A stretch of DNA of 64,000 nt from a virus, in the IMG/VR virus record IMGVR_UViG_3300025466_000015, one strand, 5' to 3'. Shown piece after piece: positions 27,321-44,562 of the stretch. Under the pieces are notes generated by a model, which was not told the DNA's origin, ran no database searches, and was given only the letters and a program-made list of their open reading frames with translations. A program made the position numbers and the translations under genes. Position 1 is the first letter of the stretch, and each line of letters begins with the position of its first letter.

Positions 27321-27344
27321 ACCCCGCCTAGTGCGGGGTTTTTT
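27321..27344 (+). terminator. rho-independent terminator
   Basis: ACCCCGC-CTAGT-GCGGGGT followed by a T-run, between convergent genes. Confidence 0.85.
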
Positions 27345-29034
27345 ATACCAGCCTCAGGTTTTGTTTCTGTACCTTCTGTAATGTTGGATCATCCGTTCTA
27401 ACAGGTATAGAGGTGTCTAGTACAATATCACTACCTTTTGAACCAGATTTTGCAACAATATTTTTAGAGTTGTCAATATTAATCACTTTTGGTTGAGACT
27501 CTTTCATTTGTAAATCAGTATTTTGTGCCATTGCATTTTGTGCTCTCTCACCAATTGGATTTGGTGCTGGTGGTGCCATTGATGCTGTTGATGTTGATGG
27601 TGCTGAAGCGGTTGATGTTGATGGTGACATTGAATCACCTGATGGCGCTGAGGCTGGTGCTACTGATGTTGTTGATGTTGCAGCTGGACTAACGGATGAT
27701 GGTGTTGCAGCTGCAGCTGTTGATGTAGATGTTGCCTGTGTCGTTTTTGGTGTACCATCTGTATTGTATTTTTCTCCGAATTTTTTGTCCCAATTCTCTT
27801 GTTCAAGTTTCAATTTACTACCAGCAGGACTTCCAGCATCTATATCTTTTTGTGTTACATTTTTGTGTCTTGCATCACCAGCTTTTGGTCTAGGTGGTTG
27901 TTTTGGTAATTTATCATTTGTTGATTTCGGTACAGCAACATCTGGTCCTTCAGCTATTTGTTTAACCATTTTCAAACCACCCATATCAATAATGGCTTGT
28001 TTGTTAGATTCGGGATCTTTTAGAAGTTCTTGTGCTCGGGCTTTACTATTTTTAATCACATCGGTCAAATAATCTTTACCGCTTTGTGTAACTTTTCCGT
28101 CTTTATCTTTTTGGTCATATACAGCAATATCATTTGCCGAACCATTCTCTAATACAGCAGCGGCCTCTTGTGGAGTCATTGCTTTCATATTTGGTATGTT
28201 TTCTTTGACCAACTTTGTTAAAGCATCAGACATTAAACCTGCCAAATATACAGCTAATGTGCCAGCTGCAGCAACACCTAAAATGGCTAAAACATAGGGA
28301 TTAACCAAAAAACGACCTAGTGTTTTCAATAAATTTTTACCAATAATTTCAGCAAACTCCAATAATGGTTTTAATATTTCTTTCAAAGCATCGATTGCTG
28401 TACTTATCGTCTTCTCAATGTTTTTTAACAAATCACCAAGTCCACTAAACAAACCTTTTCCTTTTGGTTTAGTTACTTTTGTTGCCGAACCAGTAACTTT
28501 CATGCCAGTTATAGCAGAAAGTAATTCTTTGTGCCATGTTTCTTTTTGTTTTTCTTGTTTATACTTAAAGTTTATATCAAGTTCTCTACGTTTTTCTTCT
28601 TCAGTATAATTGGATTTCATTAGGTTGTATAATTTACCTAATACACTAGCAACACCCTCACCTTTTTTCATTCGTTGATTCTGACCTTCAGCCACTTTGG
28701 TGTATAATGCTGGTTGTATAGCACTTAAATCACTATCTTGTGTAATGTTGCCAGCATAGTTGCCTCTACGACCACCAGCAAAATACTGAATATCTTTATC
28801 ACTTCTACCTGTCAAACGACCAAGAACGGCTGCACCAAGATTACCTGTTAAAGCTTTGGCAATGTTTAACGGATCAAATTTCTCTTTGATACCGGTTACT
28901 CTGGCTCTAAGTGATTGTGATATAGAAGAACGAATAGCTTTACCAACACCTTGACCTGAAACGATGTTTTGTGTTATTAGTTCTTTAAGACCTGTATCTC
29001 TAATTCTACGGCCTTGTTGATATGACATTGCCAT
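27343..29034 (-). CDS. baseplate hub / tape-measure-like protein
   Basis: Position downstream of gp26/gp51; helical, with TM-like segment and S/T/A-rich linker. Confidence 0.6.
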   Translation of the reverse strand: MAMSYQQGRRIRDTGLKELITQNIVSGQGVGKAIRSSISQSLRARVTGIKEKFDPLNIAKALTGNLGAAVLGRLTGRSDKDIQYFAGGRRGNYAGNITQDSDLSAIQPALYTKVAEGQNQRMKKGEGVASVLGKLYNLMKSNYTEEEKRRELDINFKYKQEKQKETWHKELLSAITGMKVTGSATKVTKPKGKGLFSGLGDLLKNIEKTISTAIDALKEILKPLLEFAEIIGKNLLKTLGRFLVNPYVLAILGVAAAGTLAVYLAGLMSDALTKLVKENIPNMKAMTPQEAAAVLENGSANDIAVYDQKDKDGKVTQSGKDYLTDVIKNSKARAQELLKDPESNKQAIIDMGGLKMVKQIAEGPDVAVPKSTNDKLPKQPPRPKAGDARHKNVTQKDIDAGSPAGSKLKLEQENWDKKFGEKYNTDGTPKTTQATSTSTAAAATPSSVSPAATSTTSVAPASAPSGDSMSPSTSTASAPSTSTASMAPPAPNPIGERAQNAMAQNTDLQMKESQPKVINIDNSKNIVAKSGSKGSDIVLDTSIPVRTDDPTLQKVQKQNLRLV

Positions 29035-29037
29035 TTT

Positions 29038-30573
29038 TTATCCTTGTTGATGTGCTGGTAAATCTGGTGAACTACCTTGTGCGAGTGTTTTTTGTTTAGA
29101 CGGTGTAGATTGTGATATGTTTGTTTGTGTATTATCCATAATAATTGTGGTACCTGATGCACCTTCTTTCTTAAGGTTTTGGTTTTGTATTGAACCCAAT
29201 GCTAATTGTGTACCTAAATCTTTTTGTTGTAATGCCTGAGCGTATTTTTCTTGATATTGGCCAACTTTTTCAAATAAAACATTTATAACTTGCTTTACAG
29301 TTCTAGGTTTATTTTTATCTACTTTTTTATCAGTTTTTTCATAAAATATAAAATCATTTGCCGCTGCAGCAGCAGGCATTATATCAGCAGCTTTTTTATT
29401 TGGATCAGCAGTAAATAATGTTTTTGCACCACCAGCACCTAAAAAATGAGCTGCATAGACTGAAGTTGCATCTACTGGTATTTTCGCTTTAGATAATATT
29501 GCAGAATTTTCTTTAATGAATAAAGCGCCAGCTATTGCACTAGCATTTGCATCTTCAGGTCCCTTTTCTTTCAGAATAGGGTAATCTTTACCATATTTTT
29601 TTACCATGTCATTCCAAGTACCGGAAATAAATTGATATAAACCTTTTGCTGAACTTGTACCAGCTTTTGCTTCTGGGTTAAAATTACTTTCTTGTTTAGC
29701 AATTGCATACATCAAAGCACGGTCTACACCAACTGTTTTGGAAGCTTCATCAATAGCATTAGCATATGTTATTGCGGGCATTAATAATCCACCAACTATT
29801 GTTGCTCCTGTAACCTTGGCAGCTGTTGATACACCTGATGGTATAGAAGGTTTAGGTACTGTAACAGTAGGCGTTGGCGCTTGTGGTGCCGCCGGAGCAG
29901 GTTCAACAGGCTTTGCTGTTACTGGTGGTTTTGCTTCAGGTGCAGGCTTAGCTGTTGGTGGTTCTGCAGGCTTAACTTTTGGTTCTGGTGGCTTAGCTTG
30001 AGGTTCTGCTGGTTTAGCTTTAGGTTCTGGAGGTTTAGCTTGCGGTTCTGGTGCCTTTTCAGTAGTCTTTTTAACTTCTTCTTTGGCCTTAGTTTCTGCT
30101 TTCTCAGGTGCTTTCTTTTCAGGTTCTTTTTTTTCTTCTTTTTTCTCAGGCTCTTTTTTCGTTTCTTTAACTTCTTTTCGTTTTTTTAATGCTTCAACCA
30201 ATTCTTTGTGGCGTCTGGTATCTTCATCTATATGTTCTCTTTCAAAATCACGATTCAACTCAAAATGAATTTTTCTTTCTCTTTCGGTTGATTTGATAAG
30301 ACTGAATAATTTACCGGCAACATCAGCCACCGAATCATTTTTTTCTAATTTTGGATTTTTCTTTTCAGCAGCTTTAGTAAAGAATGCTGTATCAACAGAA
30401 CCAACTTTGCCGACAGTTGGTTTCTTAACACCCATTGCCTTAATAGGTGAAGGTTTTCTTTGAGCCATTTGCCTAGTGGCATTACGAGGATTGCCTACAG
30501 TAGCAGCTACGGTTTCACGGCTGAATTTCTTTTTAAACCCTTCTGCTATATTTTGTAGGCCTTCTGTAATCAT
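29038..30573 (-). CDS. hub/tape-measure-like protein with lytic transglycosylase (SLT) domain
   Basis: AIAKQESNFNPEA, SSAKGLYQFISGTW, YAAHFLGAGGA; Pro/Lys-rich linker. Confidence 0.75.
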   Translation of the reverse strand: MITEGLQNIAEGFKKKFSRETVAATVGNPRNATRQMAQRKPSPIKAMGVKKPTVGKVGSVDTAFFTKAAEKKNPKLEKNDSVADVAGKLFSLIKSTERERKIHFELNRDFEREHIDEDTRRHKELVEALKKRKEVKETKKEPEKKEEKKEPEKKAPEKAETKAKEEVKKTTEKAPEPQAKPPEPKAKPAEPQAKPPEPKVKPAEPPTAKPAPEAKPPVTAKPVEPAPAAPQAPTPTVTVPKPSIPSGVSTAAKVTGATIVGGLLMPAITYANAIDEASKTVGVDRALMYAIAKQESNFNPEAKAGTSSAKGLYQFISGTWNDMVKKYGKDYPILKEKGPEDANASAIAGALFIKENSAILSKAKIPVDATSVYAAHFLGAGGAKTLFTADPNKKAADIMPAAAAANDFIFYEKTDKKVDKNKPRTVKQVINVLFEKVGQYQEKYAQALQQKDLGTQLALGSIQNQNLKKEGASGTTIIMDNTQTNISQSTPSKQKTLAQGSSPDLPAHQQG

Positions 30574-30761
30574 CTGCTAGCTTGTCTTTGCTTGATTTTT
30601 TCGTTTTCTTGTTCAATATATTGTATAAGCATAGACACATAGATGTCTCTCTCCCAAGGAATCATATTGTCAAGTTCTGTCAAACTGTATTTGTGGTGTT
30701 GCATCAATGCAAAATTAGTTTGATAGTGATTCCTCAAATTATCATGACGAAATGTTAACCG
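30570..30761 (-). CDS. gp51: gp51-like baseplate hub assembly protein (not in ORF track; likely made by -1 frameshift from gp26)
   Basis: Frame RLTFRHDNLRNHYQTNFALMQHHKYSLTELDNMIPWERDIYVSMLIQYIEQENEKIKQRQASR*; first ATG only at 30704. Confidence 0.8.
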   Translation of the reverse strand, partial: RLTFRHDNLRNHYQTNFALMQHHKYSLTELDNMIPWERDIYVSMLIQYIEQENEKIKQRQASR

Positions 30762-31474
30762 AAAAAACTTTCAAGACCCTCCACTTCTATTGTATGATGG
30801 AAACCACACTTTTTACAATCCATTTGAATGGTCTTGTTTAGTGTGGGTAGATTACTAAAGAAATCTTCTATCTTGGAGAATTGTTGTTGATTCAAAGACT
30901 CAACAAATTCAGTCAATTCTTCAGGACTAGATTCTTTGGCATAATAATATTGTTCACCATCAAAAATATATTCAATAGAGTTGACAATCATAGAGAAAGC
31001 CAAATCAGTAGCTGATGAAATATCGGCCGATAATATAGAAAATTCAGGATACTTTAGTTTGATACTCAATCTATCATTCAACTGAATCACATCAGATTGT
31101 TTTTCTGGCATATTAACTTTAATGTCCAACAGGTTCAAGTTGGATTCCATTAAATTGCCGCAAGGTTTATTGTCTACCAAGTTTTCACATTTGTATTTGT
31201 TCTCAACAACTTCACCAACAGAACGAGCTCTTAGTTGTAGAAAATAAAACTCTACATCTAAAATAGGTAACCCATCAATGTCAATTCCGTCAGTCAAAGT
31301 ACAATTATGTAAGACTTGACGAATATTCTTTTCAATATTATTCTTATCGTCAGACTCCATAGCCATCATCAGATTACGCTGTTCTTTGACCAAGAACGGT
31401 CTGAACCTTATATGTTTCTTAGATAATGGTAAATCCAGTTCATAGACTGGTGCATCAATTTTAGGCAAAGCCAT
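30755..31474 (-). CDS. gp26: baseplate hub assembly protein gp26
   Basis: MALPKI ... RPFLVKE ... LRARSVGE ... LKYP ... CKKCG ... EGLESFF. Confidence 0.9.
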   Translation of the reverse strand: MALPKIDAPVYELDLPLSKKHIRFRPFLVKEQRNLMMAMESDDKNNIEKNIRQVLHNCTLTDGIDIDGLPILDVEFYFLQLRARSVGEVVENKYKCENLVDNKPCGNLMESNLNLLDIKVNMPEKQSDVIQLNDRLSIKLKYPEFSILSADISSATDLAFSMIVNSIEYIFDGEQYYYAKESSPEELTEFVESLNQQQFSKIEDFFSNLPTLNKTIQMDCKKCGFHHTIEVEGLESFFG

Positions 31475-31503: not shown

Positions 31504-32229
31504 TTATGATAGTTGATATCCATCTTCAGCAGATGTTGGATTAGGTATTTGATATCCATCTTCAGCAGATGTTGGATTAAAAGTTGGATTTTGTGTCACC
31601 ATAGAAGATGGAATATCTGGTGTTGGATTTGCTTGGCCAAGACCACCAAATCCAGTAGTAATTTGTGATATAGCAGTCTGTAACAAACTTGTACCAAGAG
31701 CCTGCACCGAATTGTTCTGCCAGTATGTATAAGCAAACACCACAACCAATTTATGGTAATCGGTATTAGACCACTCTAAATCTAATTGGTTGACTGATAT
31801 TGGGTAAGCATCAATTAGATTAATAGAATATGTTTTGTTAGATGCAACATCATACTGATTGATGGTGATGGTCGTTGCATAGTCAGTCTTATATTTAAAG
31901 TTAAAGGTGTAAGATGGATTGATATACTCCAACCATGAATCAAAGAATATCTTCTCAGACATATCATCAGACACAATAAAAGTCAACTCAACATCATTGT
32001 ATTGTGGTTGATACGGGTACTTTTCAATAGGATTGGAACCAAACTTTTGTTCGGCTGTGGCCAATGTTCTACTAGGCAGTTGAGCAGCCTCACACCTAAA
32101 ATTTAAATTTCTAGATGTGTTCAAGAAAGGATACAAGGTCAAAGGAACAGGAATAGAAACGTCAAAACGACTCGGACGAGCCAAGTCGGTTACAAAACTG
32201 GATTTAAAATCGTTGATTGAACCTGCCAT
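31504..32229 (-). CDS. gp54: baseplate-tail tube initiator gp54-like
   Basis: LARPSRF, CEAAQLP, LTFIVS, AYPISV, VVFAY; tube-fold family; position. Confidence 0.7.
   Translation of the reverse strand: MAGSINDFKSSFVTDLARPSRFDVSIPVPLTLYPFLNTSRNLNFRCEAAQLPSRTLATAEQKFGSNPIEKYPYQPQYNDVELTFIVSDDMSEKIFFDSWLEYINPSYTFNFKYKTDYATTITINQYDVASNKTYSINLIDAYPISVNQLDLEWSNTDYHKLVVVFAYTYWQNNSVQALGTSLLQTAISQITTGFGGLGQANPTPDIPSSMVTQNPTFNPTSAEDGYQIPNPTSAEDGYQLS
31513..31579. repeat. 31-bp direct repeat at the gp54-like 3' end
   Basis: TTGATATCCATCTTCAGCAGATGTTGGATTA at 31513 and 31549 (NPTSAEDGYQ twice). Confidence 0.9.
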
Positions 32230-32231
32230 TT

Positions 32232-32828
32232 TTATGAATTCCTAATCTCTTGCATGGATTCTTTCCATATCTGCTGTGGTTTTTCGCCTTTAAACTGGTG
32301 AACCGGTAAATACATGGAGGTTTCCCATTCGTTTGGTTGAACCGCCAGAATCCTTGACCTAATATGAGGAAACAAGTATCGTTTTATACATGGCTTGAAC
32401 TCTCGGAATCTCTTGGATGCGTTTAGGATATCATAAGTGACTCTCATTCTCTTGATATCGTCTTCGTTATCCAGGAGAGCAAACTGCATCAATTTCCTAA
32501 GAAAAATAATCCTGTACTTAACTGGTAAGTAATGTAGGTTTAATCCAAGGAATCCATCCTCGTATTTGTCCAACACCAGAACCAAAGGGAATTTATCATA
32601 ATATGGCAACTCATGTTTCAACTTTGGATCATACAAAAAGTAATATAACTTACCTTTGACAAATGTTCTAACGAATCTACTTTTCTCTTGACTAATGCCT
32701 TTAGCCAATTTGATTGGATTTCTAAGGTCGGCTACTTTTTTGGTGTACCATGACATCGACTCACGAGACAATTTTTGTAAATTGGCCGCTGAGTGTTCTT
32801 CAGTAAGTGTAGTAAGTATTGATTCCAT
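32232..32828 (-). CDS. gp2: DNA end protector protein gp2
   Basis: YDPKxKxELPYYDKFPLV, GLNLHYLP, PCIKRYL. Confidence 0.92.
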   Translation of the reverse strand: MESILTTLTEEHSAANLQKLSRESMSWYTKKVADLRNPIKLAKGISQEKSRFVRTFVKGKLYYFLYDPKLKHELPYYDKFPLVLVLDKYEDGFLGLNLHYLPVKYRIIFLRKLMQFALLDNEDDIKRMRVTYDILNASKRFREFKPCIKRYLFPHIRSRILAVQPNEWETSMYLPVHQFKGEKPQQIWKESMQEIRNS

Positions 32829-32840
32829 TAGAGTATTTAG

Positions 32841-33275
32841 TTAGAGACCAAGATGGTCTTCTGTAATGACTCTGAATTCCCAGCCACGATCCATACAGTA
32901 TTCGTTGGCTGCTTTCCATTTAGCCTCATTAACTCCCCAGGTGGCTACTTCGTTAATGAATTTCTTTGTTACTCTTTTCTGTGGTTTAGGTGGTTGAGTT
33001 TGGTACTTTGGTTTGACCTCAAGCATCAAAGTTCTCTGTTTACCATCTTTGCCTTTGATTTTCACTATAAAATCAGGAAAGTATCGGTGCCAACGATTAT
33101 CTACAGGTGACACATAAGGCACGATTAATTCTTCAGAAGCCCAAGATATTACTGAGTCATTACGGTCGAGCCAATCCATGACACGGCACTCCCACGATGA
33201 GCGGTAAGTGATGTTTCGATAGTCCCCAATATACTTTTGAGGATTGGTAGGTGTGAATCGTCCTGAATATGCCAT
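32841..33275 (-). CDS. gp4: head completion nuclease gp4
   Basis: YSGRFxPxNPQKY, YRSSWE, WASEE, RYFPDF, EVKP, NEAKW, ITEDHL; start moved to MAYSG. Confidence 0.92.
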   Translation of the reverse strand: MAYSGRFTPTNPQKYIGDYRNITYRSSWECRVMDWLDRNDSVISWASEELIVPYVSPVDNRWHRYFPDFIVKIKGKDGKQRTLMLEVKPKYQTQPPKPQKRVTKKFINEVATWGVNEAKWKAANEYCMDRGWEFRVITEDHLGL

Positions 33276-33311
33276 AAATAGTATGTATATCAATTTTTAT
33301 AGAAGAAATTA

Positions 33312-34556
33312 ATGGCCATTATTTCAATTCCAACATCAGTTGCAGGTGTAGCGTTACCCGGATCATTAGGTGGTCTGGCTAAAGGACCTTTGAGTGCTTT
33401 GTTTGCGGGTAATGGCGTTCAAACACTTCAATATCCATCCGATTTAGCAACTGATCCGTCCAGAGCACATTACATACAATTTTCCATTAAAGAAATTGTA
33501 CCGGCAGGTTGGACTTCTACTAATGGAGTCGTTTCTGGTGCTAAAATTGGTGCAGGAGGTGCTAATGCTGTTAAAGCTGCAGCATCATGGGCCGCATCCA
33601 CAGTTTCTGGTGCTGCAACATCGGTTAATCAATCCATAGTTAATAATGTTCCTGGCGCTGCAATAGTTGAAAATGCTTTGTCTGAAGCTTCTACAATAAC
33701 TTCATCATCTGTGGTAGGACAAACTTTAGCTCAAGGCATAAATTCGGTAGAAAATTCAGTTTCTAGTGCATTTTCTTCATTTATCAATACGCTATCATCA
33801 ACTACTATAGGTCAAAGCATCAAAGAAGGATTGTCAATTACTCCACAAACCACAAATCCTCGTGCAGTAATATCGTTATATATGCCAGATACACTCAACG
33901 CTGGTTACCAATCATCATATGATACACCATCATTACAAGATGCTTTTGGGTCAACAATACAAGGTATTAGGTCTTTAGTTAAAACTGCTGGACAATTTGC
34001 TGAAGGTGCTGATTTAAAAAGTGTAATTTCTAGTGATCCAGGTGTCATAAACCTTCAAGCAAAAGCCATTGGTGTTGGAGCAGGCCTTGCTGGTGGAAAT
34101 GTAGAACTCACACAATCTCTTGTATTGCAGGCACAAGGTTATGCAATTAATCCACAAGTTCAGATGTTATATAAAGGTATTGACTTGAGGAGTTTTCAAC
34201 TCTCATTTACCTTTACTCCAAAATCTGCTGATGAGACAGAACAGGTTGATAAAATCATATCCACATTCAAGTATTATTTCTCTCCAGCATTACAAGCAGG
34301 TGCTCAGACTCAAACGGATGCCATGTTTCTTATTCCACCAGCATTATTTAATGTAAATTTTATGATTAATAGCGTTGAAAATAGATATTTGCCAAAATAT
34401 GGTGATTGTGTATTAGAGAATATGGAAGTAAACTATGCACCAAATGGTTGGTCTTCTTTTGAGAGTGGTGCACCAGTTCAAACAACTTTATCTTTGAGTT
34501 TTAGAGAAACACAAATTATCGATAAGGCTAAGTTACAAAACGGAGATTTGAGATAA
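33312..34556 (+). CDS. gp48: baseplate tail tube cap gp48
   Basis: LQYP, LYMP, NPQVQMLY, RSFQLSFTFTPKS, VNYAP, LSFRET. Confidence 0.85.
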   Translation: MAIISIPTSVAGVALPGSLGGLAKGPLSALFAGNGVQTLQYPSDLATDPSRAHYIQFSIKEIVPAGWTSTNGVVSGAKIGAGGANAVKAAASWAASTVSGAATSVNQSIVNNVPGAAIVENALSEASTITSSSVVGQTLAQGINSVENSVSSAFSSFINTLSSTTIGQSIKEGLSITPQTTNPRAVISLYMPDTLNAGYQSSYDTPSLQDAFGSTIQGIRSLVKTAGQFAEGADLKSVISSDPGVINLQAKAIGVGAGLAGGNVELTQSLVLQAQGYAINPQVQMLYKGIDLRSFQLSFTFTPKSADETEQVDKIISTFKYYFSPALQAGAQTQTDAMFLIPPALFNVNFMINSVENRYLPKYGDCVLENMEVNYAPNGWSSFESGAPVQTTLSLSFRETQIIDKAKLQNGDLR

Positions 34557-35191
34557 TGTTTTACTTTAATTCGTTTCCAAAAGTAATCACAACCGATTAC
34601 AATGGTAATGGTATCTTGCTTACCAATATCATTAAGAGAATTAATTTTATACCAGGATTATTGAGTAATCCTTTGTTGTTGTATAAGTATGACTTGCAAG
34701 AAGGTGATACACCAGATATTGTAGCGAATAAGTATTATGGAGATTCATACAGATATTGGTTGCCTCTGTTTGCTAATAATATTATGAATCCACAATGGCA
34801 ATGGCCAATGGATTCAAATGTATTTGATTCATATATTCAAAACAAATATGCTGAGGCCGCAGCAGCCGCAAATGTTTCTAGTGTATTATCTTACACTCAA
34901 AGCACGGTTTACCAATATACAAAAACAATTCAAACTGTTGATAGTTACACATTAAATTCAAATTCAACAACGATTGTGATAGATGAACCTACATATAATT
35001 CCATGGTAACTGGAACAACAACATCTACTTTCCCCAATGGTGCTACAATAACACAAACAATCACCAAAAATGTTGTAAGTATCTATGATTATGAATTGGA
35101 ACAAAACGAATCTAATCGTTCAATTTCTCTCATCAATTCAATCTATACATCACAAATAGAATCACAGTTTGCATCACTAATGAAGTTATAA
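34556..35191 (+). CDS. gp53: baseplate wedge gp53
   Basis: YFNSFP, GDTPDIVAxKYYG, WP, YDYExxxNE. Confidence 0.88.
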   Translation: MFYFNSFPKVITTDYNGNGILLTNIIKRINFIPGLLSNPLLLYKYDLQEGDTPDIVANKYYGDSYRYWLPLFANNIMNPQWQWPMDSNVFDSYIQNKYAEAAAAANVSSVLSYTQSTVYQYTKTIQTVDSYTLNSNSTTIVIDEPTYNSMVTGTTTSTFPNGATITQTITKNVVSIYDYELEQNESNRSISLINSIYTSQIESQFASLMKL

Positions 35192-35192
35192 T

Positions 35193-36566
35193 ATGGCTGA
35201 TACACAAGTACCATTAACGCCAGGTATACGGGCACCGCAGAATTATTCGGTAGCCAGTTTAAATATCATCACAGCCACAGGCATAATGGATTTAAAATTG
35301 ATTGCTGCCGAATTATCATACCAAGAAGATTTGTTTAATAATACGGCTTCAGGTTATCTTTTGGTAACAGATTCGATGAACTATGTTCAATCTTTGAACT
35401 TGAATGGTAATGAATACCTTCAAATGGTCTTTAGTACAAGTGGTGACACCTTTGAAGAAATCAGTAAGATATTCCGAATCTATAAGATGGCCAAGAGGAA
35501 ACTTGAAGGCAATATGTATACTATTTCATATTGTTTGTATTTCTGTTCTGACGAAATGATATTAAATGAACAATATAAGGTATGTAAATCTTATCCTAAT
35601 CAACCTATTTTCTCAAATGTGGCAGATATTTTATTGAATGAATTAAAAGTACCTGTTTCTAAGATAGCAAACATAGAACCAACATATGGTAATTATGATT
35701 TTGTGATACCAACAATCAAGCCATTTGATGCCATTAACATGATGTCAGTATATGCAAGACCATCTACCGGAACTGTTGGTGCAGATATGATTTTCTTTGA
35801 AGATAAGAATGGATTTAATTTTAGATCCTTACAATCTATGATGCAAGGTGATAGTTACCACGATTATGCTTACAATCCAAAAAATACTGATCCTAAAAAT
35901 TTAAATTCAGCACTATATAATGTTTTGACATATGAGATTTTAGATTCATATGATGTATTGAATGGTGTCAATTCTGGTGCTTTTGCAAATCAATTGTTGT
36001 CTATTGATATATTGACAAGGACAAAGAAAGTAACCAACTTTGATTATGGTTCTTATATAAATGAGGGTTATACATTGAATGGATACCCCCTGATTAATCA
36101 GTTTCAAGATAGATACGGAAATGAATTAAATCGATCTTCACAAGCTGTTTATAAGTTGATTTTTTCAAATTTTCAACAAAACAGTTCAACGTATGTCAAA
36201 GACCAAGATAATGGTTCAGTAGCACATAATATTAATGCTGAGACTTACATACCGTATAGAACAGGACAATTAGCTTTGGCCAACTATACAAGATTAAAAA
36301 TATCGATTCCGGGTGATTCTAATATGACAGTAGGTAGAGTGGTAGGTTTTTCATTAGGTAATATTAATCCAAATAGTGAAGATCCAGATAGTTTCTATGC
36401 TGGTAATTATTTGGTCACAGGTGTTAGACATTTGATTGATTTTATCAGGTTAGAATATAAAACTATAATGGAAATTTCAAAAGATAGTACACCAACACAA
36501 TATGCTTCACCTGATAATACATCATCATTATGGCAACAACTTGCACAAGGAACTATAAATGGCTAA
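35193..36566 (+). CDS. baseplate hub protein (gp27-like)
   Basis: Between gp53 and gp5; FFEDxxGFNFRS, IPGDS, GNYLVTGVRH. Confidence 0.7.
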   Translation: MADTQVPLTPGIRAPQNYSVASLNIITATGIMDLKLIAAELSYQEDLFNNTASGYLLVTDSMNYVQSLNLNGNEYLQMVFSTSGDTFEEISKIFRIYKMAKRKLEGNMYTISYCLYFCSDEMILNEQYKVCKSYPNQPIFSNVADILLNELKVPVSKIANIEPTYGNYDFVIPTIKPFDAINMMSVYARPSTGTVGADMIFFEDKNGFNFRSLQSMMQGDSYHDYAYNPKNTDPKNLNSALYNVLTYEILDSYDVLNGVNSGAFANQLLSIDILTRTKKVTNFDYGSYINEGYTLNGYPLINQFQDRYGNELNRSSQAVYKLIFSNFQQNSSTYVKDQDNGSVAHNINAETYIPYRTGQLALANYTRLKISIPGDSNMTVGRVVGFSLGNINPNSEDPDSFYAGNYLVTGVRHLIDFIRLEYKTIMEISKDSTPTQYASPDNTSSLWQQLAQGTING

Positions 36567-36873
36567 AGACGTAATGAACTTTGCCGGCCTGAATGGATTT
36601 GTTTGGTGGGTCGGTGAAATTGAAAATAGAGATGATCCGTTAATGTTAGGTAGATGCCAAGTTCGTATTTTTGGTTGGTATGATGCTGGCCAAATACCAA
36701 CAAAAGATTTGCCATGGGCACATCCAATGTATCCATTAAATAATTCTAAAACTTTTTCTTCTCCAAATGTAGGAGAATGGGTTATTGGTTTCTTTATGGA
36801 TTCACAGAATGGCCAAATGCCAATCATGATGGGTCTTTTACCAGGTATTATAGAGGATAAACCAAATGAGTAG
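36559..36873 (+). CDS. gp5: gp5 N-terminal OB-fold domain as a stand-alone ORF
   Basis: FVWWVGEIENRDDPLMLGRCQVRIFG ... DLPWA ... GEWVIGFFMD ... PIMMG. Confidence 0.88.
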   Translation: MAKDVMNFAGLNGFVWWVGEIENRDDPLMLGRCQVRIFGWYDAGQIPTKDLPWAHPMYPLNNSKTFSSPNVGEWVIGFFMDSQNGQMPIMMGLLPGIIEDKPNE

Positions 36874-37729
36874 TTTAGTTGCAACACTACCTTCAGGAGT
36901 AACGAGATCAAATGTATCTGTGCCAAGAATTGCACAAGGTGTGGTCAATGGTACAATGATACAACAAATGAATAATAAATTATCTCATGCCTGTGATTTT
37001 GCCAACGAATTAAAAAAGAACAAACAACTTAAAAAGTTTTTAATTGCTCAGGCAGCCGAAATACAAAAAGCAATTCGTGCTGTATTGAGATTTTTAGGTG
37101 TTGGTGATCCTAGTGGTACCTTGTCTGCTACAGCAACCTGGTTAAGAGGTTTGGCCAATGAAATTTTAGATTGGAAGAAAAGAGTTTTAGATCCAATTTT
37201 AGATTTTACTAAGGAAGTTGCTGGATTTGTAGTATGGGCTACAGGAATGATTGCCTATATTAAAAGTTTACCAGTAAGAGTGCTTGCTTTGTTGGAATCT
37301 TGTTTATTGAAAATACTTAATGCTATAGCAAATATTATGAATGATGTTTTTGCAACAGTTGAAAATCCTTTTAGTGAAGTTGCTGCAGCTGTCAAACAAG
37401 TTACTTCAGCTGTAGGTTCAACTGTTAAAGAAATTGCTATAATTACGGCAACTACGGCTGCAACTGTACAACTGGCAAATCAAACTTTATCAACAGCAAC
37501 AACTAAAGCTCAAGGTGTTGCGTCTTCAGCAAACACTTCACTTTCTAGCAGCCTTACTACAAACACATCTTCGGTTTCTAATAACCTTGATATGATTTCA
37601 CAATTAACGCCAACTAGTGTCGCATCAGCAAATGCAGCCGTGTCAATGATTATAAGTACTATACCAAGTGCTGCTAATGTGGCATCACAAAATACTCAAA
37701 GTAATTCTAGTAAAAAGAGTACGCCATAA
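36866..37729 (+). CDS. hypothetical helical protein between the gp5 halves
   Basis: GAGGA SD; overlaps both neighbours. Confidence 0.7.
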   Translation: MSSLVATLPSGVTRSNVSVPRIAQGVVNGTMIQQMNNKLSHACDFANELKKNKQLKKFLIAQAAEIQKAIRAVLRFLGVGDPSGTLSATATWLRGLANEILDWKKRVLDPILDFTKEVAGFVVWATGMIAYIKSLPVRVLALLESCLLKILNAIANIMNDVFATVENPFSEVAAAVKQVTSAVGSTVKEIAIITATTAATVQLANQTLSTATTKAQGVASSANTSLSSSLTTNTSSVSNNLDMISQLTPTSVASANAAVSMIISTIPSAANVASQNTQSNSSKKSTP

Positions 37730-38571
37730 TGTCTACTAAACCATCATCAGACAATTCGTGGACAGAACCGGAATCAGCTGCCAATACTGACTATCAACCA
37801 GTTTATCCTTTTAATCATGCGACTGTGACAGATTCTGGTCACTCTTTTGAATTGGATGATACTCCAACCCGTGAGAGAATTCGTCTACAACATCGTTCAG
37901 GCACATTTATTGAGATGCATCCGAATGGTGATGAAGTACATAAAGTGTATGGTGATGGATATGAAATCACAATCAACAATAAAAATGTATTAATTCAAGG
38001 TCAATGTAATATTGAAATACAAGGTGATGCCAATATAAATGTAATAAAAGACCTGAATCTTAAAGTCGGCAATGATTTTAGTCTTGAGGTTGGTGGTAAT
38101 ATGTACGCCAGAGCTCATGGTAATAGAGGTATTGAATTGGTTTCTGATTCTGACATGATCTTACACGCCGATCCAATAAATGGTGGTTCTCTGAGATTAA
38201 ACACTGGTGACAATTTGTATTTGAGTGGTGATCTAAACGTTGCAGGATCAATCACAGCTGACATTATCACCGCAGAGTCTAGATTAGGTACAGGACCATT
38301 AGGTGGTGTTTCGTCTGGTGCTTTTGGATTTACATCTGCAACAGGAGGACTATCATTAGGAGTACCAGAACCAACACCGGTTGCAGTTCCTGGTTCTATT
38401 TTTACTGTAGGACCTATCAATTCAGCAGTTTCTGTATCATCTCCATTGGGTAATTTTGGTGTTATGGATGCCGTATTGATGACTGATACGATTAACACAA
38501 GTATTTTTGGTGTACATAATCACATAGCACCTTTTGGACCAACATCGCCACCATTAATTAAAATGTTTTAA
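37729..38571 (+). CDS. gp5: gp5 C-terminal beta-helix spike
   Basis: WTEP, YPFNH, SGHSFELDDTPTRERIRLQHRSGTFIEMHPNG, VxG repeats, terminal HNH..GPT.PP. Confidence 0.85.
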   Translation: MSTKPSSDNSWTEPESAANTDYQPVYPFNHATVTDSGHSFELDDTPTRERIRLQHRSGTFIEMHPNGDEVHKVYGDGYEITINNKNVLIQGQCNIEIQGDANINVIKDLNLKVGNDFSLEVGGNMYARAHGNRGIELVSDSDMILHADPINGGSLRLNTGDNLYLSGDLNVAGSITADIITAESRLGTGPLGGVSSGAFGFTSATGGLSLGVPEPTPVAVPGSIFTVGPINSAVSVSSPLGNFGVMDAVLMTDTINTSIFGVHNHIAPFGPTSPPLIKMF

Positions 38572-38582
38572 ATGAGGATATT

Positions 38583-39470
38583 ATGGCTTTAGTAAACAAC
38601 GCAACAGGAGTATACTCCACTTTAGGATTTAGTTATGATGATCCTAATAATAATATCGTAAATTTGCCCGATAGTACGTTGCAACATATGAACGTTATTC
38701 CGCCAGTCATTACGAGTTGGCAAGCTCAAGATATTGCAAGTGGAAGTGTTGGTGGTTATACTTATAATCCGGTAAGTAATTCTGTTCATTGGATGAGCGA
38801 CACAGCTAATTCAATTTTGGCATATTCACCAGTTGTCGCTACTGTTACAGGTGTTGGTCCGTTGATTAGTAATATCACGGCAAATTGTATCTACTTGTCT
38901 ATTGGAAATGATACATATTCACAAAATGCTATCACTTTCTTATATCATACTGATCGATTATCTGGTGTAAGGTCACAATCCGATGATGCTAATGCAAAAA
39001 TAAGTGGTACGAATCTACCATACTATCAAACGGCAATACAGGCCGCCAAGAGTGCCACATACATTGTTAATCAAACGGATGGTGTTGCAAACAACTCTGT
39101 GATGTTGGGTTCTTTTACTAGTATTCTATCATCCAATCAGATTAACCAATTAGCCAATTCAATATATTTCAATGCAAAAACATTCATTAGTAGTCTAACT
39201 CTTGTGCCTGTAGGTGAAGGTATGGGTTCGGATTACTACACATCAAATTTGACTTTGAGTCAGGCTTCTACAATTGCAAATAACTTTGCTAATGTGGTTG
39301 GTATTATGACCACAAGAGAAACTGCGGATGAAACCTTTTATGTGAATTTACAAAATTTAATCAATAACTACAATACGACCAAACAATTTACGAATCTAGG
39401 TGATACAGAAGGATTATTACTCAATACATATATCGGTACACCAAAGATTAAATCAAGAATTAATCAATAA
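38583..39470 (+). CDS. hypothetical virion protein
   Basis: GAGGA SD; lies in baseplate cluster. Confidence 0.7.
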   Translation: MALVNNATGVYSTLGFSYDDPNNNIVNLPDSTLQHMNVIPPVITSWQAQDIASGSVGGYTYNPVSNSVHWMSDTANSILAYSPVVATVTGVGPLISNITANCIYLSIGNDTYSQNAITFLYHTDRLSGVRSQSDDANAKISGTNLPYYQTAIQAAKSATYIVNQTDGVANNSVMLGSFTSILSSNQINQLANSIYFNAKTFISSLTLVPVGEGMGSDYYTSNLTLSQASTIANNFANVVGIMTTRETADETFYVNLQNLINNYNTTKQFTNLGDTEGLLLNTYIGTPKIKSRINQ

Positions 39471-39554
39471 CCGGAAATTTCGAAATCCTTGCCGGCCTCC
39501 GAAAAAGTCCGGACGGTATCCAAGATTCCAAAAAGCGCATTTACTCCTAGGCTC

Positions 39555-39562
39555 TATAAATA
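39555..39562 (+). promoter_or_regulatory. T4-type late promoter
   Basis: TATAAATA directly upstream of gp25. Confidence 0.8.
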
Positions 39563-39566
39563 AAGA

Positions 39567-39959
39567 ATGGCACAACTACAAAAATTATATTCAGATATAG
39601 ACCTAACATTCAACCGATTACCGGTTTCTAATGATGTGGCTCTAAGATATGATGACCAAGCGGTAATAGCTTCGGTCCGTAATCTACTTTCGACTAATTT
39701 TTATGAAAGACCATTTCAACCTAATCTAGGTTCAAATATAGACAAGTTGTTATTTGAACCAGTAAACAATTTAACTGCTGGTTTATTGTCTGATGAAATA
39801 AAAAATGTTATTCGAAATTTTGAACCAAGAGCTTCAATTGACAGTATTACCGTTTCTCCAAATACAGACGGAGTATCTTTTACAGCTAGAATACAGTTCT
39901 ATATTGGAAACAATACAACACCAACGACAGTAAACCTATTTCTCCAAAGGTCAAGGTAA
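39567..39959 (+). CDS. gp25: baseplate wedge gp25
   Basis: YSDIDL, SVRNL, ERPFQP, LFEP, FEPR. Confidence 0.93.
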   Translation: MAQLQKLYSDIDLTFNRLPVSNDVALRYDDQAVIASVRNLLSTNFYERPFQPNLGSNIDKLLFEPVNNLTAGLLSDEIKNVIRNFEPRASIDSITVSPNTDGVSFTARIQFYIGNNTTPTTVNLFLQRSR

Positions 39960-42037
39960 TGGCATCTTCAAATACAAATATAAAGGTAACAGATTTAGAT
40001 TTTAATAGTATTAAGTCTAACTTTATTACCTATCTCCAATCACAAGACCAATTCAAAGATTATAATTTTCAAGGTTCTTCTTTGTCGGTTTTGCTTGACC
40101 TTTTAGCCTATAATACACAATATAATGCCTACTATTTAAATATGGTGGCTAATGAGATGTTCTTAGACTCAGCACTTCAAAGAAGTTCTGTTGTTTCTCA
40201 AGCTAAAGTTTTGGATTATACACCTAAATCAGCAACCGCTCCTTCAGCATACATCAATTTTAATGCTTATGGAGTAACAAATCCAACATTTACTTTACCA
40301 CAATACACCAATTTTTCTTCTGAAGCGGTGAATGGTGTTAACTATAATTTTATTACAACAGACTCAACAACAGTTAATGTGGTGAATGGTGTCGCCAATT
40401 TCAACAATATCCAATTGAAACAAGGTATTAGTGCCACATACACTTATACGGTCAACAATACAAGTAATCCCAACCAATTATTTCAAATACCTGATGCGAA
40501 TATTGATACTGCAACCTTGAAGGTTACGGTACAACAATCTTCAAGTAACACATCTTTTGACATTTACAAACCGGCTGTAGATTATTTGACCTTGACACCA
40601 ACATCTAAGGTATACTTTTTACAAGAAAGTTTGAATGGCAATTATGAGATATATTTTGGCGATGGAATTTTAGGCCAACATTTGAGTGACGGTAACGTTG
40701 TTTCATTATCTTATATCTCAACAAGTGGTACTTCTGCGGCTGGTGCCAACAATTTTGTGTTGATGGATAATATTGGTTCTTTTACAACAGCAAATGTTGC
40801 TCCTATACAGGCTGCTTCACAAGGTGGTACAAAAGAATCGATTGCTTCTATTAAGTATCAAGCACCAAAATCTTATGCAGCTCAGAACCGTGCTGTGACT
40901 AAAGAAGATTACATCACATTGATACAACAAAATAGTCTAGATATACATCTTGATGCTGTTAATGTATGGGGCGGAGAAGAAAACGTTCCTCCAGTATACG
41001 GTCAAGTATTTGTTGCATTAAAGCCAACAGGTGGATATTCATTAACCGATACACAAAAACAAAGGTTAATCAATAATGTTATTAAACCAATATCGATAAT
41101 GACCGTTGAACCAACAATTGTTGATCCTGATTATACCTATGTTCAGGTTATAGCAAATGTATTGTATGATGCAAAGAGAACAACGTACACAGCTAACAAT
41201 ATTTCCAATATAGTTAAAGCAACAGTTGCCAATTTCTCATCTAAAAATTTAAACACATTCAATTCAACCTTTTCTTCTTCTGATTTGGTTAGTCAGATTC
41301 AAAACTCTGACACATCAATTCTAGCAAATGAACTTACTGTTCAGTTACAGAAGAAATTTTATCCAAATTTAAATAGTTCTACCACATATACCTTTTATTT
41401 TGGTGTTCCAATTAAAAAGGGTTCGTTCTTAAGCGGTGTTAGTAGTTCTCCAGCACTTCAATATTTGAATAATACAGGTACAGTTATTGATGGTGTCTTC
41501 ATAGAAGAAATACCAGTTGCAACAGAAGGTGTAGATACGATTTCTGTTTTGAATCCAGGTTATGGTTACCAGACACCACCAACTATTACAATCATTGGTG
41601 ATGGATCAGGCGCAACCGCAACAGCCGTATTGAATTCAACAGGTTCTATTTCAGCCGTTAATGTTACCAATTCTGGTAATAACTATACAACAGCTTACGC
41701 AACAGTAACTCGTTCTAATCAAAACGAAACAACCGGTGATTTAGGATCAGTTGTTGTTAATCTAAAAGGAAAATATGGTACTTTGGGTTTGTATTACATC
41801 GATACAACTTATGGTAAAGTATATTTGAATAATAATATTGGAACAATAGATTACGCAAATGGTATTATAACATTAAAAGATTTTAATCCTTTTGCAATAG
41901 ATGATGCTTTGGGGCAATTAACACTGACAGTTAATCCAACAACAACAATCGTTTCTTCATCACGCAATAGAATTGTTACGATTGATCCTTATGATCCGAA
42001 TGCAGTTATTGTCAACGTTAACGCTAAGACATCATGA
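39959..42037 (+). CDS. gp6: baseplate wedge gp6
   Basis: LDFNSIK, DYNFQGS, LAYNT, EMFLDSA, YFGDG, QNRAVTKEDY, VWGGE. Confidence 0.93.
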   Translation: MASSNTNIKVTDLDFNSIKSNFITYLQSQDQFKDYNFQGSSLSVLLDLLAYNTQYNAYYLNMVANEMFLDSALQRSSVVSQAKVLDYTPKSATAPSAYINFNAYGVTNPTFTLPQYTNFSSEAVNGVNYNFITTDSTTVNVVNGVANFNNIQLKQGISATYTYTVNNTSNPNQLFQIPDANIDTATLKVTVQQSSSNTSFDIYKPAVDYLTLTPTSKVYFLQESLNGNYEIYFGDGILGQHLSDGNVVSLSYISTSGTSAAGANNFVLMDNIGSFTTANVAPIQAASQGGTKESIASIKYQAPKSYAAQNRAVTKEDYITLIQQNSLDIHLDAVNVWGGEENVPPVYGQVFVALKPTGGYSLTDTQKQRLINNVIKPISIMTVEPTIVDPDYTYVQVIANVLYDAKRTTYTANNISNIVKATVANFSSKNLNTFNSTFSSSDLVSQIQNSDTSILANELTVQLQKKFYPNLNSSTTYTFYFGVPIKKGSFLSGVSSSPALQYLNNTGTVIDGVFIEEIPVATEGVDTISVLNPGYGYQTPPTITIIGDGSGATATAVLNSTGSISAVNVTNSGNNYTTAYATVTRSNQNETTGDLGSVVVNLKGKYGTLGLYYIDTTYGKVYLNNNIGTIDYANGIITLKDFNPFAIDDALGQLTLTVNPTTTIVSSSRNRIVTIDPYDPNAVIVNVNAKTS

Positions 42038-44562
42038 TATCTAACGGTCAAAAAACATCTTTATTAATTCCTTCCCAACTTCCCGCTTTTATACGGGAAA
42101 ATCCTGACTATGATAATTTTGTATCATTCGTTCAGGCTTACTATGAGTGGTTGGAAACAGAAGGCAATGTATCGGACAGAGCTCAGAATCTTTTAAATTA
42201 TAAAGATATTGATAGAACGACAAATGATTTTATTGATTATTTTATCAACGATTTCTTACAATATTTTCCACAAGACGCTTTAATCAGTAAAGCAACAGCC
42301 GTTAAATTTGCTAGACAATTATACAAGTCTAAGGGAACACCTGCATCATATCAATTTTTGTTTAGGGTCCTTTACAATTCTGATTTTGATGTATATTATA
42401 AAAAAGATTCGGTATTAAGAGCATCTGATGGTACTTGGTATGTATCAAAAAGTTTAAAACTTGCAACATCCGATGTCAATTTTTTAAATATCAATAACTA
42501 TAGGATTTTTGGTGAGACAACCAAATCAATTGCTATTGTTGAAAATTCAGTTTTGGCTGGTAATAAAACAGAAGTTTTTATATCAAATATTGAAAAGTTA
42601 TTTCAATCTGGTGAGTTTATTCGTGTTGTAAACAATAGAAACCAAGATGTTTACTTTCTAAATGGTGTAGAGGTGCCTGCTGGAACAACAGGTTCGGAAG
42701 TATTAAGAGCTAAAATTGTAGGCCAAATTAGTTCGATTAAAATTGATCCTAATAATCGTGGAAGTTATTATAATGCTGGAGATCCAGTTATTGTTTATGG
42801 TGGATTGAATACTGCAAACGGCCACGGTGCTCTTGCTGTAGTTGGAACGGTAACGACAGGTTCAATACAAACATTAGATGTATGGAAGGGAGGTTACGGA
42901 TACACAGTTTCTCCTAATTCCTCTATTATATTTACGGATGATACTTCTGACACGACAGGACACGGCGCAAATGCTATAATATCTACTGTAAATCCAGATA
43001 TTCACTATGAAGCAAACGTAACTTTTGTTCCGACAGATGATATTTTATTTCAGAATACGGCTACAATAAATTCTTCAAATTTTAGTACAGCTAATGTAGT
43101 AAATGTTAGACTTGCTGATGCCTTCACGTTTGCCAACTATCCAACTTATCCAATTTCATCAGTTTTATTAACAAATGGTGGCGGTGGTTATACAAAAGTA
43201 CCAAAAATCACAGCAATATCTGGATACTTAGATAAAACAGCAAGTACTTATATGGACCTTTCACATATTGGTATTTTAGCACCAATACAGATAACTTCTG
43301 GTGGATTAGGTTATGCCAATGGCGATACGATTGTTTTTACAAGTGGCCACGGGTATGGAGCTAAAGCTTCTGTTAATGTTAATATCAATGGAACAATCAC
43401 ACAAGTAACTTATCAACCAACAGGTAAATATCCATTAGGTGGCATGGGGTATACAAACGATTCTTTGCCTTTGGTCACGGTTAGTTCATCAAACAATGCA
43501 GCTTACGGTGCAAGTCTATATGTTCCATCTATTTTAGGAACAGGAGCTTCTTTTAATGTAACGACTACAAGTGTTGGAACTGTTACTACAATATCAATAG
43601 AAGATAATGGTGAGGATTACATTTCTACGCCTGTTGTATCTTTGAAAGTACAAGATATAGTCGTATCAAATTTACTTGTGGATAACTTTCCACAATTAGG
43701 ACAAACTGTTTATCAAGGGGCAGATTTAGGTTCTGCCACATATAAAGCAACAGTAAACAATGCCACATTATTGTTACCTAACGGCGACAATCCAACTTCC
43801 AGTTTATATAACCTAAGAGTTTTTGAATATACAAGTATTCCCGATCCCACACAGAATCTGAAAATAAGTAATACCAGTATATCAATGGTGATGGCAAACA
43901 CAGCCTACAAACCACCAGGAACACCTTCGAGAATACCATCTGTATATAATTCAACTGGTGTCAGAACTTATGGTGATGGAAAAGCAAAAGCCAATGCATC
44001 TTTCTTGAATGGTCTTGTCATAGGTGCCGGACAATATCTTGATAAACGTGGCCAACCAAGTTCTTATAGTGTGTTACAAAGTTCTGTTTATAATAATTTC
44101 ACTTATGAGATTACAGTAGAAAAAGAAATTGCTAAGTATAGAGATATTCTTTTAAATCTATTACATCCATCAGGATTGAAAATGATTGGCCGATATATAT
44201 TAAATTCTAGTAATAGTTTTTATACAAAATATAATACTGCCGATTTTGAAGAAGGTTATACGTTATCACATTATACCAAAGATGTCGAATCATATATAAC
44301 TATGAATTTGACTTCAGCCAATAGTTATAATAACGTCATCACTTTCCATACTTTGAATGGTGTAAGTATATTAAATACTGTGTATCCAAATACAATTATA
44401 TCATTTTTGGCCAATGATGGAACTTTGTTTACTTCTGAAGTAACTAGTTCAAATACACAATCAAATACGGCAACACTTAAAGATAGTGTTTGGTTAACAA
44501 CAAGTGGATTAACAGCCGTTTCATCAAATGTAACTATTTTTGGCAATAGTATTTTTGGATAA
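42034..44562 (+). CDS. gp7: baseplate wedge gp7-like
   Basis: FVxAYYEWLE, LYKSKGT, FLFRVLY, LLHPSG; between gp6 and gp8. Confidence 0.75.
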   Translation: MISNGQKTSLLIPSQLPAFIRENPDYDNFVSFVQAYYEWLETEGNVSDRAQNLLNYKDIDRTTNDFIDYFINDFLQYFPQDALISKATAVKFARQLYKSKGTPASYQFLFRVLYNSDFDVYYKKDSVLRASDGTWYVSKSLKLATSDVNFLNINNYRIFGETTKSIAIVENSVLAGNKTEVFISNIEKLFQSGEFIRVVNNRNQDVYFLNGVEVPAGTTGSEVLRAKIVGQISSIKIDPNNRGSYYNAGDPVIVYGGLNTANGHGALAVVGTVTTGSIQTLDVWKGGYGYTVSPNSSIIFTDDTSDTTGHGANAIISTVNPDIHYEANVTFVPTDDILFQNTATINSSNFSTANVVNVRLADAFTFANYPTYPISSVLLTNGGGGYTKVPKITAISGYLDKTASTYMDLSHIGILAPIQITSGGLGYANGDTIVFTSGHGYGAKASVNVNINGTITQVTYQPTGKYPLGGMGYTNDSLPLVTVSSSNNAAYGASLYVPSILGTGASFNVTTTSVGTVTTISIEDNGEDYISTPVVSLKVQDIVVSNLLVDNFPQLGQTVYQGADLGSATYKATVNNATLLLPNGDNPTSSLYNLRVFEYTSIPDPTQNLKISNTSISMVMANTAYKPPGTPSRIPSVYNSTGVRTYGDGKAKANASFLNGLVIGAGQYLDKRGQPSSYSVLQSSVYNNFTYEITVEKEIAKYRDILLNLLHPSGLKMIGRYILNSSNSFYTKYNTADFEEGYTLSHYTKDVESYITMNLTSANSYNNVITFHTLNGVSILNTVYPNTIISFLANDGTLFTSEVTSSNTQSNTATLKDSVWLTTSGLTAVSSNVTIFGNSIFG

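Follow-up and report, generated by a model that had tools for sequence, protein, structure and literature searches.

According to a 2016 review of recoding (Atkins et al., PMC5009743), long-tailed phages share a conserved G-T frameshift "except T4"; for T4, gp26 and gp51 appear among the non-structural "hub assembly chaperones" of Leiman et al. (2010, PMC3004832). The identification of gp26 and gp51 as the tail chaperones of T4-like phages is attributed to Vladimirov, Gautam and Davidson (Virology 2022;566:9-15, PMID 34826709) by papers that cite them (PMC10885494, PMC12846349); in the summary given by the PRFect paper, that study showed that, in place of frameshifting, a short gene and a fused long gene are present in some T4-like phages, and a paper from 2025 refers to it for poly-T slip signals in the genes for the short tail-assembly-chaperone form (TAC-N) of T4-like phages. 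Because these citing papers credit the 2022 study with both the pair and the poly-T signals, we regard the frameshift principle in T4-like tail chaperones as already known, the 2022 paper, as represented in those citations, appearing to describe it; an initial suggestion that such a frameshift had gone unreported is thus withdrawn. Herein we analyse a candidate site of this type at the 3' end of a gp26-like gene in an uncultured T4-like phage (IMG/VR virus record IMGVR_UViG_3300025466_000015), the analysed stretch of 64,000 nucleotides being referred to as the window.

The gp26-like gene occupies 30755-31474 on the minus strand, as do all features of the site, and encodes a 239-residue protein with the C-terminus ...ESFFG, its 3' end reading GAA AGT TTT TTC GGT TAA. 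This end contains the slippery heptamer T_TTT_TTC (30761-30767; U_UUU_UUC in mRNA), read directly from the sequence in X_XXY_YYZ phase (codons AGT 30769-30767, TTT 30766-30764, and TTC 30763-30761), with the zero-frame TAA stop (30755-30757) one codon (GGT) further 3'. The -1 frame begins at C30761 (CGG) and is open for 63 codons through 30573, this extension (30573-30761) being gp51-like and constituting the putative "T" domain; its TGA stop (30570-30572) shares an ATGA with the start codon of the next gene (ATG, 30573-30571). The earliest in-frame starts in the -1 open reading frame (ORF) are TTG 30737 (codon 8) and ATG 30704 (codon 19), with no purine-rich stretch resembling a Shine-Dalgarno (SD) sequence within 15 nucleotides upstream of either. 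The heptamer, gp26 3' end, 63-codon frame, and ATGA overlap had all been put forward in the original prediction, along with the lack of an SD near the first ATG, and each was re-derived here on the minus strand.

We consider it highly probable, on comparative sequence grounds, that the gp26-like gene undergoes programmed -1 ribosomal frameshifting on U_UUU_UUC, and that one gene very probably gives proteins of 239 and 301 residues. Most ribosomes would stop at the TAA, yielding the short form. On a smaller share, the pair of tRNA-Phe, bound to UUU in the P site and to UUC in the A site, would slip back one base onto UUU UUU, and the slipped ribosomes would read CGG onward, adding 63 residues to yield the predicted long form (238 + 63). 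The slip would thereby set a fixed ratio of the two forms. Coincidence is an unlikely source of the heptamer and -1 ORF, since the chance that any one gene has an in-phase TTTTTT[CT] run among its final few codons is ~0.3% (the window, at 36% G+C, has 49 such runs counted over both strands), that of 63 stop-free codons at window composition is ~1%, and the -1 peptide matches phrog_634 "baseplate hub assembly catalyst" (E 4.7e-29).

The two frames encode adjoining parts of a single protein family. The gp26-like protein matches Pfam PF12322 (T4_baseplate) over its full length (E 5.2e-61; 206.6 bits against a cut-off of 24.5), with residues 9-238 covering profile positions 2-218 of 219. Against phrog_150, the gp26 family profile, it covers positions 5-232 of 282 (E 5.3e-65) and the -1 peptide covers positions 235-276 (E 9e-7), such that the gp26-like ORF and the -1 peptide adjoin within one profile. 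In the T4-type phage RB27, gp51 (249 residues) itself matches PF12322 over residues 1-201 (E 4.3e-55) and covers phrog_150 positions 13-280, its residues 201-244 aligning to the -1 peptide of the window (BLASTP E 9e-5). By these alignments, T4-type gp51 is a gp26 paralogue with a homologous C-terminal extension, which is exactly the protein that a -1 slip would yield here; the gp26-like body and the predicted -1 extension are colinear with T4-type gp51 and join only after a -1 shift. Both RB27 and a Karamvirus have gene 26 and gene 51 as separate units with divergent transcription. NCBIfam searches returned no family for either the gp26-like protein or the -1 extension, and no GenBank phage was matched by the 2.4-kb region in megablast. 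The Pfam column of a protein database tags the extension with PF28602, a family not included in the Pfam copy searched here, and the gp51-type C-terminal domain thus seems already to have a curated family of its own.

The original prediction had staked itself on conservation of the heptamer and of the frame relation, and both are conserved among relatives. The comparison covered 89 loci (the window itself, 80 IMG/VR contigs obtained with a single-peptide query, and 8 loci from GenBank), taking in Kyanoviridae, a Methylophilales phage, KVP40-like Vibrio phages, a Sinorhizobium phage, and a Nitratidesulfovibrio phage. The heptamer is in phase in 89/89 (T_TTT_TTC in 82, T_TTT_TTT in 7) and the -1 frame relation is kept in every one, with the gp26 stop one codon beyond the heptamer in 86, immediately after it in one, and two codons away in two. 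Across the same loci, the -1 frame is open for 57-67 codons downstream of the heptamer versus 2-27 upstream. The heptamer is also kept in an Aeromonas Emmerichvirinae phage, in S-SKS1, and in Paraglaciecola GD1. A tblastn search with the -1 peptide found 546 phage records, the match running mostly from residue 1 and overlapping the annotated end of gp26. Were there no recoding, the overlap would be a relic of a split gene, with a -1 ORF that is either unexpressed or superfluous; set against this are an ORF that stays open in more than 500 phage records, its 63-87% identity over the 80 environmental contigs, and its clear third-position periodicity, and we hold this the most improbable of the explanations considered.

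Constraint at the nucleotide level was assessed in 86 distinct sequences. The two synonymous sites of the heptamer have 0.00 bits of entropy, versus 1.5-1.9 bits at neighbouring upstream zero-frame third positions. The codon ahead of Phe-Phe is always NNT (AGT 48, AAT 31, GAT 6, GCT 1), the first Phe is encoded by TTT in 86/86, and the second by TTC in 79 and by TTT in 7, despite TTC making up 31% and TTT 69% of Phe codons elsewhere in these genes. Directly 3' of the heptamer, codon periodicity moves to the -1 frame, 19 codons ahead of the usual first ATG, and the -1 frame residues L8 (85/86), N10, T14, N15 (85/86), and F16 (86/86) are 93-100% conserved, all before the usual Met19, a residue that is itself absent in 10 of the 86. 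The early claim that gp51-like sequence begins upstream of the first ATG is borne out by these residues, and -1 coding constraint starts at the heptamer rather than at TTG 30737 or ATG 30704. Phages with two genes keep Phe-Phe with non-slippery codons (TTC TTT in RB27, TTC TTC in the Karamvirus).

These patterns bear directly on an alternative in which the small ORF is translated alone, with ribosomes either reinitiating after termination at the gp26 stop or initiating at TTG 30737 or ATG 30704. The product would be a free gp51-like peptide of 44-55 residues, non-covalently associated with gp26, and the T-run would just encode Phe-Phe. In the window, the -1 ORF offers no start for 8 (TTG) or 19 (ATG) codons and no SD, yet those codons are under -1 coding constraint; moreover, Met19 is missing from some relatives, protein sequence leaves the frozen NNT-TTT-TTY synonymous sites unexplained, two-gene phages relax those sites, and in T4 gp51 the covalent fusion is the functional architecture. 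Taken together, (i) the frozen sites, (ii) the skew in codon usage, (iii) the switch in periodicity, (iv) the missing Met, and (v) the codons of the two-gene phages argue against both independent initiation and a purely protein-level origin of the T-run. There are nonetheless points in favour of separate translation. Hosts of such phages often use weak SD signals, and databases annotate a separate "baseplate hub assembly catalyst." We judge this alternative improbable.

Several further observations weigh against a programmed frameshift. Phe-Phe is conserved at the protein level even in T4 gp26, and this conservation explains part of the T-run, though not its frozen synonymous sites. Starts occur at or near the gp26 stop in some relatives, i.e., TAATG in K491 and VAP7, ATGA in Paraglaciecola GD1, and an ATG 4-6 codons downstream of the stop in P-RSM6 and S-SKS1, for which reason independent translation of the small ORF is possible in K491, VAP7, P-RSM6, and S-SKS1. 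In favour of the frameshift, no second copy of gp26 or of the T domain was found within the 64-kb window; that search having covered the window alone, a separate long-form gene may lie outside it. Stimulatory elements were likewise not detected. The 108 nucleotides downstream of the site in the window fold no better than shuffles (z -0.05), folds of 86 relatives have a mean z of -0.7 with no common stem, and RNAalifold on 83 sequences returned 0 pairs. A hand-picked stem at +8 to +32 was rejected as no better than shuffles or slid partners, and a GAGGG 9 nucleotides 5' of the heptamer was rejected as an SD-like stimulator, the Glu codon concerned being mostly GAA in relatives.

In the cyanophages S-CAM4 and S-MbCM7, a GC-rich hairpin is present 6 nucleotides 3' of the site, a feature not common to the relatives. 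The stop one codon downstream is the sole conserved feature besides the heptamer, and may either stimulate the slip or just keep the dual-coding overlap short.

The nature of the run itself raises a different possibility, in which slippage of RNA polymerase on the T6 run would put an extra U into some of the mRNAs and so fuse the frames. The site is indeed a homopolymer, with runs of 7-8 T in 7/89 relatives, and singleton metagenomic gene calls exist with both parts fused in frame, as a run one T longer would give through polymerase or sequencing error. Productive slippage by bacterial RNA polymerase generally needs ~8-9 identical bases (reviewed in PMC5009743), a length of which the six T followed by C in the window fall short; this C caps the run in 82/89 loci. 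The 79:7 preference for TTC over TTT at the last codon, even with TTT being the commoner Phe codon, runs contrary to what slippage on the run would call for. In addition, UUUUUUU is avoided in genes, possibly through transcriptional slippage or indels (PMC4066793). Transcriptional slippage on a C-capped T6 run is thus unlikely, and we consider it a still weaker contender than independent initiation. The fused metagenomic proteins (PF12322+PF28602, 280-306 residues) are all singletons with several garbled junctions, could be homopolymer sequencing errors, and were not used as evidence of frameshifting.

For ribosomal frameshifting, the same sequence is favourable on known grounds. In E. coli, the H_HH.U_UU.Y class ranks with the most efficient heptamers, shifting of >0.1% occurs on U_UU.U_UU.C without a stimulator, and U_UU.C beats U_UU.U as the A-site tetramer (PMC4066793). 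The preference for C at the last position of the heptamer fits with this superiority of U_UU.C and with the avoidance of UUUUUUU. More tentatively, the site may represent a stimulator-less -1 signal common to hundreds of environmental T4-like phages, comprising an invariant U_UUU_UUC and a stop nearly always one codon downstream, without conserved RNA structure or SD; this presupposes that the 2022 paper identified the gp26/gp51 pair and the two-gene arrangement of T4 but left the signal itself undefined and untested. We think this full proposition doubtful. If true, the bare heptamer with its nearby stop would offer a simple natural model for setting a protein ratio.

Structural modelling is consistent with a chaperone identity. 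The AlphaFold2 model of the gp26-like protein has a predicted local distance difference test score of 95.9, and Foldseek of this model against the PDB returned nothing at E ≤ 0.001. In an exhaustive VIA-align search with the N-domain (residues 1-95) against 48,161 chains, the top three matches were 3fgx (Z 7.8), 3klu (Z 7.3; YqbN of the B. subtilis skin prophage tail cluster), and 2ob9 (Z 7.0; HK97 tail assembly chaperone, root-mean-square deviation 3.8 over 85 aligned residues). Values of Z below 8 are moderate; these three matches, all of them tail assembly chaperones, stand apart from the next (4.6) and cover most of each target. The modelled N-domain thus finds its best matches in the tail-assembly-chaperone fold. 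In a model of a fused metagenomic homologue, the gp26 body is followed by a linker of low confidence and then by a small C-terminal domain that is helical. The analogy with lambda G/GT that had been drawn at the outset is upheld by this predicted fold and by the colinearity of the predicted fusion with T4 gp51. By analogy with lambda G/GT, P2 E/E+E', and T4 gp26/gp51, both forms would act jointly as non-structural chaperones, with the shared body holding the tape-measure or hub protein and the small helical extension recruiting another tail component. The role is likely that of a G/GT-type chaperone pair, with specific partners proposed on this same basis.

The wider family displays variations on the site. 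In relatives of the Ackermannviridae type, the -1 relation and a homologous small ORF persist without the full heptamer: Klebsiella phage KpS110 (locus L006, 2226-2399), Vibrio phage VAP7 (L009, 2166-2351), and Vibrio phage K357 (L094, 1855-2060) retain just a T_TTC or T_TTT tetramer (ATT TTC, GTT TTT, and CTT TTC). In K357, as in VAP7, an ATG overlaps the stop (TAATG). Slippage of a single tRNA, or coupled re-initiation, may take the place of the heptamer in these phages. Of the 150 nearest gp26 cluster representatives, 127 have a C-terminal Phe-Phe followed by 0-3 residues and ~16 have Phe-Leu followed by 0 or 1 residue (e.g., ...GLQSFLV), an observation that concerns P0038, P0052, P0068, P0069, P0078, P0086, P0129, and P0138, among others. 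As Phe-Leu can be encoded by TTT TTA or TTT TTG, these Phe-Leu-ending representatives may use a T_TTT_TTR heptamer, like the one reportedly found in P2.

The gp26-like gene lies between a tube-family gene upstream and, downstream, genes for a 511-residue SLT protein and a 563-residue protein. Upstream, a 241-residue tail-tube family protein is encoded at 31504-32229 on the minus strand (PF06841 Phage_T4_gp19, E 5.6e-7; phrog_45 "tail tube", E 1.2e-35), its C-terminus containing an ~11-residue direct tandem repeat (NPTSAEDGYQ x2; 31504-31590, minus strand). The downstream gene (29038-30573, minus strand), in the slot expected for a hub or tape-measure-like gene, encodes 511 residues with an SLT lytic transglycosylase domain (Pfam PF01464, E 6.4e-12) and a Pro/Lys/Ala-rich repeat linker; its weak PHROG matches to tape-measure and hub proteins are confined to the SLT part. 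The long linker, of Pro/Glu/Lys/Ala repeats (KPAEPQAKPPEPK-like units), precedes the SLT domain at 29870-30150 (minus strand). The next gene (27343-29034) encodes 563 residues with a Ser/Thr/Ala/Pro-rich region and no family in Pfam, PHROGs, or NCBIfam. Beyond the tube-family gene are gp4-like and gp2-like genes at 32232-33293 (minus strand), followed by a divergent baseplate block at 33312-44562 (plus strand) encoding a gp48-like tube cap, wedge subunits, gp25-like and gp6-like proteins, and a 280-residue gp5-like hub piece without a lysozyme match. By its gene content, this block confirms that the source is a T4-like contractile-tail phage.

Database treatment of the site is inconsistent. 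No ribosomal slippage is annotated among the GenBank records examined. The gp51-like extension is unannotated in S-CAM4 (locus L001, 1501-1683), S-MbCM7 (L011), DSL-LC03 (L010), Aeromonas AS-zj (L005, 2190-2357), and KpS110; in Melnitz, P-RSM6, and S-SKS1, it is entered as a protein of its own, of 45-63 residues, starting at an internal or nearby ATG. Most records would thus mis-annotate the site, either omitting the extension or calling a "hub assembly catalyst" of 45-60 residues from an internal ATG, an error that annotation pipelines could correct. The textbook exception "except T4" (PMC5009743) would also be removed, in that the T4 lineage would have the same two-form chaperone, obtained either via a slip (the phage herein and most environmental relatives) or via two paralogous genes (T4). 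Ultimately, the site would constitute a clean new instance of a published principle rather than a new principle.

Lambda gpG/gpGT (Xu, Hendrix and Duda 2004; PMC5009743) likewise comprises a short form and a C-terminally extended form, produced from one gene by a -1 slip on a heptamer near the end of the first ORF. In lambda-type phages, the chaperone gene is directly upstream of a large tail gene, as the gp26-like gene would be if its downstream neighbour is hub or tape-measure-like, and the likeness to HK97 lies in the fold of the N-domain. In contrast, there is no detectable sequence similarity between the gp26-like protein and lambda G/GT; the gp26 body is approximately twice as long, with an extra Cys-containing domain, and the heptamer is U_UUU_UUC here versus G_GGA_AAG in lambda. 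P2, another contractile-tail phage, reportedly also makes gpE and gpE+E' through a -1 slip, on a T-rich heptamer located shortly before the chaperone gene ends and preceding the tape measure, much as the site in the window precedes a putative hub or tape-measure-like gene; the P2 protein family reportedly differs from that of the gp26-like protein and the P2 heptamer is reported to be T_TTT_TTG. T4 gp26 (208 residues) and gp51 (249 residues) belong to the same family as the proteins described here (PF12322, phrog_150), the short form corresponding to gp26 and the predicted long form being colinear with gp51. T4 and its close relatives encode this pair in two separate, divergently transcribed genes with non-slippery Phe codons, whereas the present phage has one gene with a start-less -1 extension.

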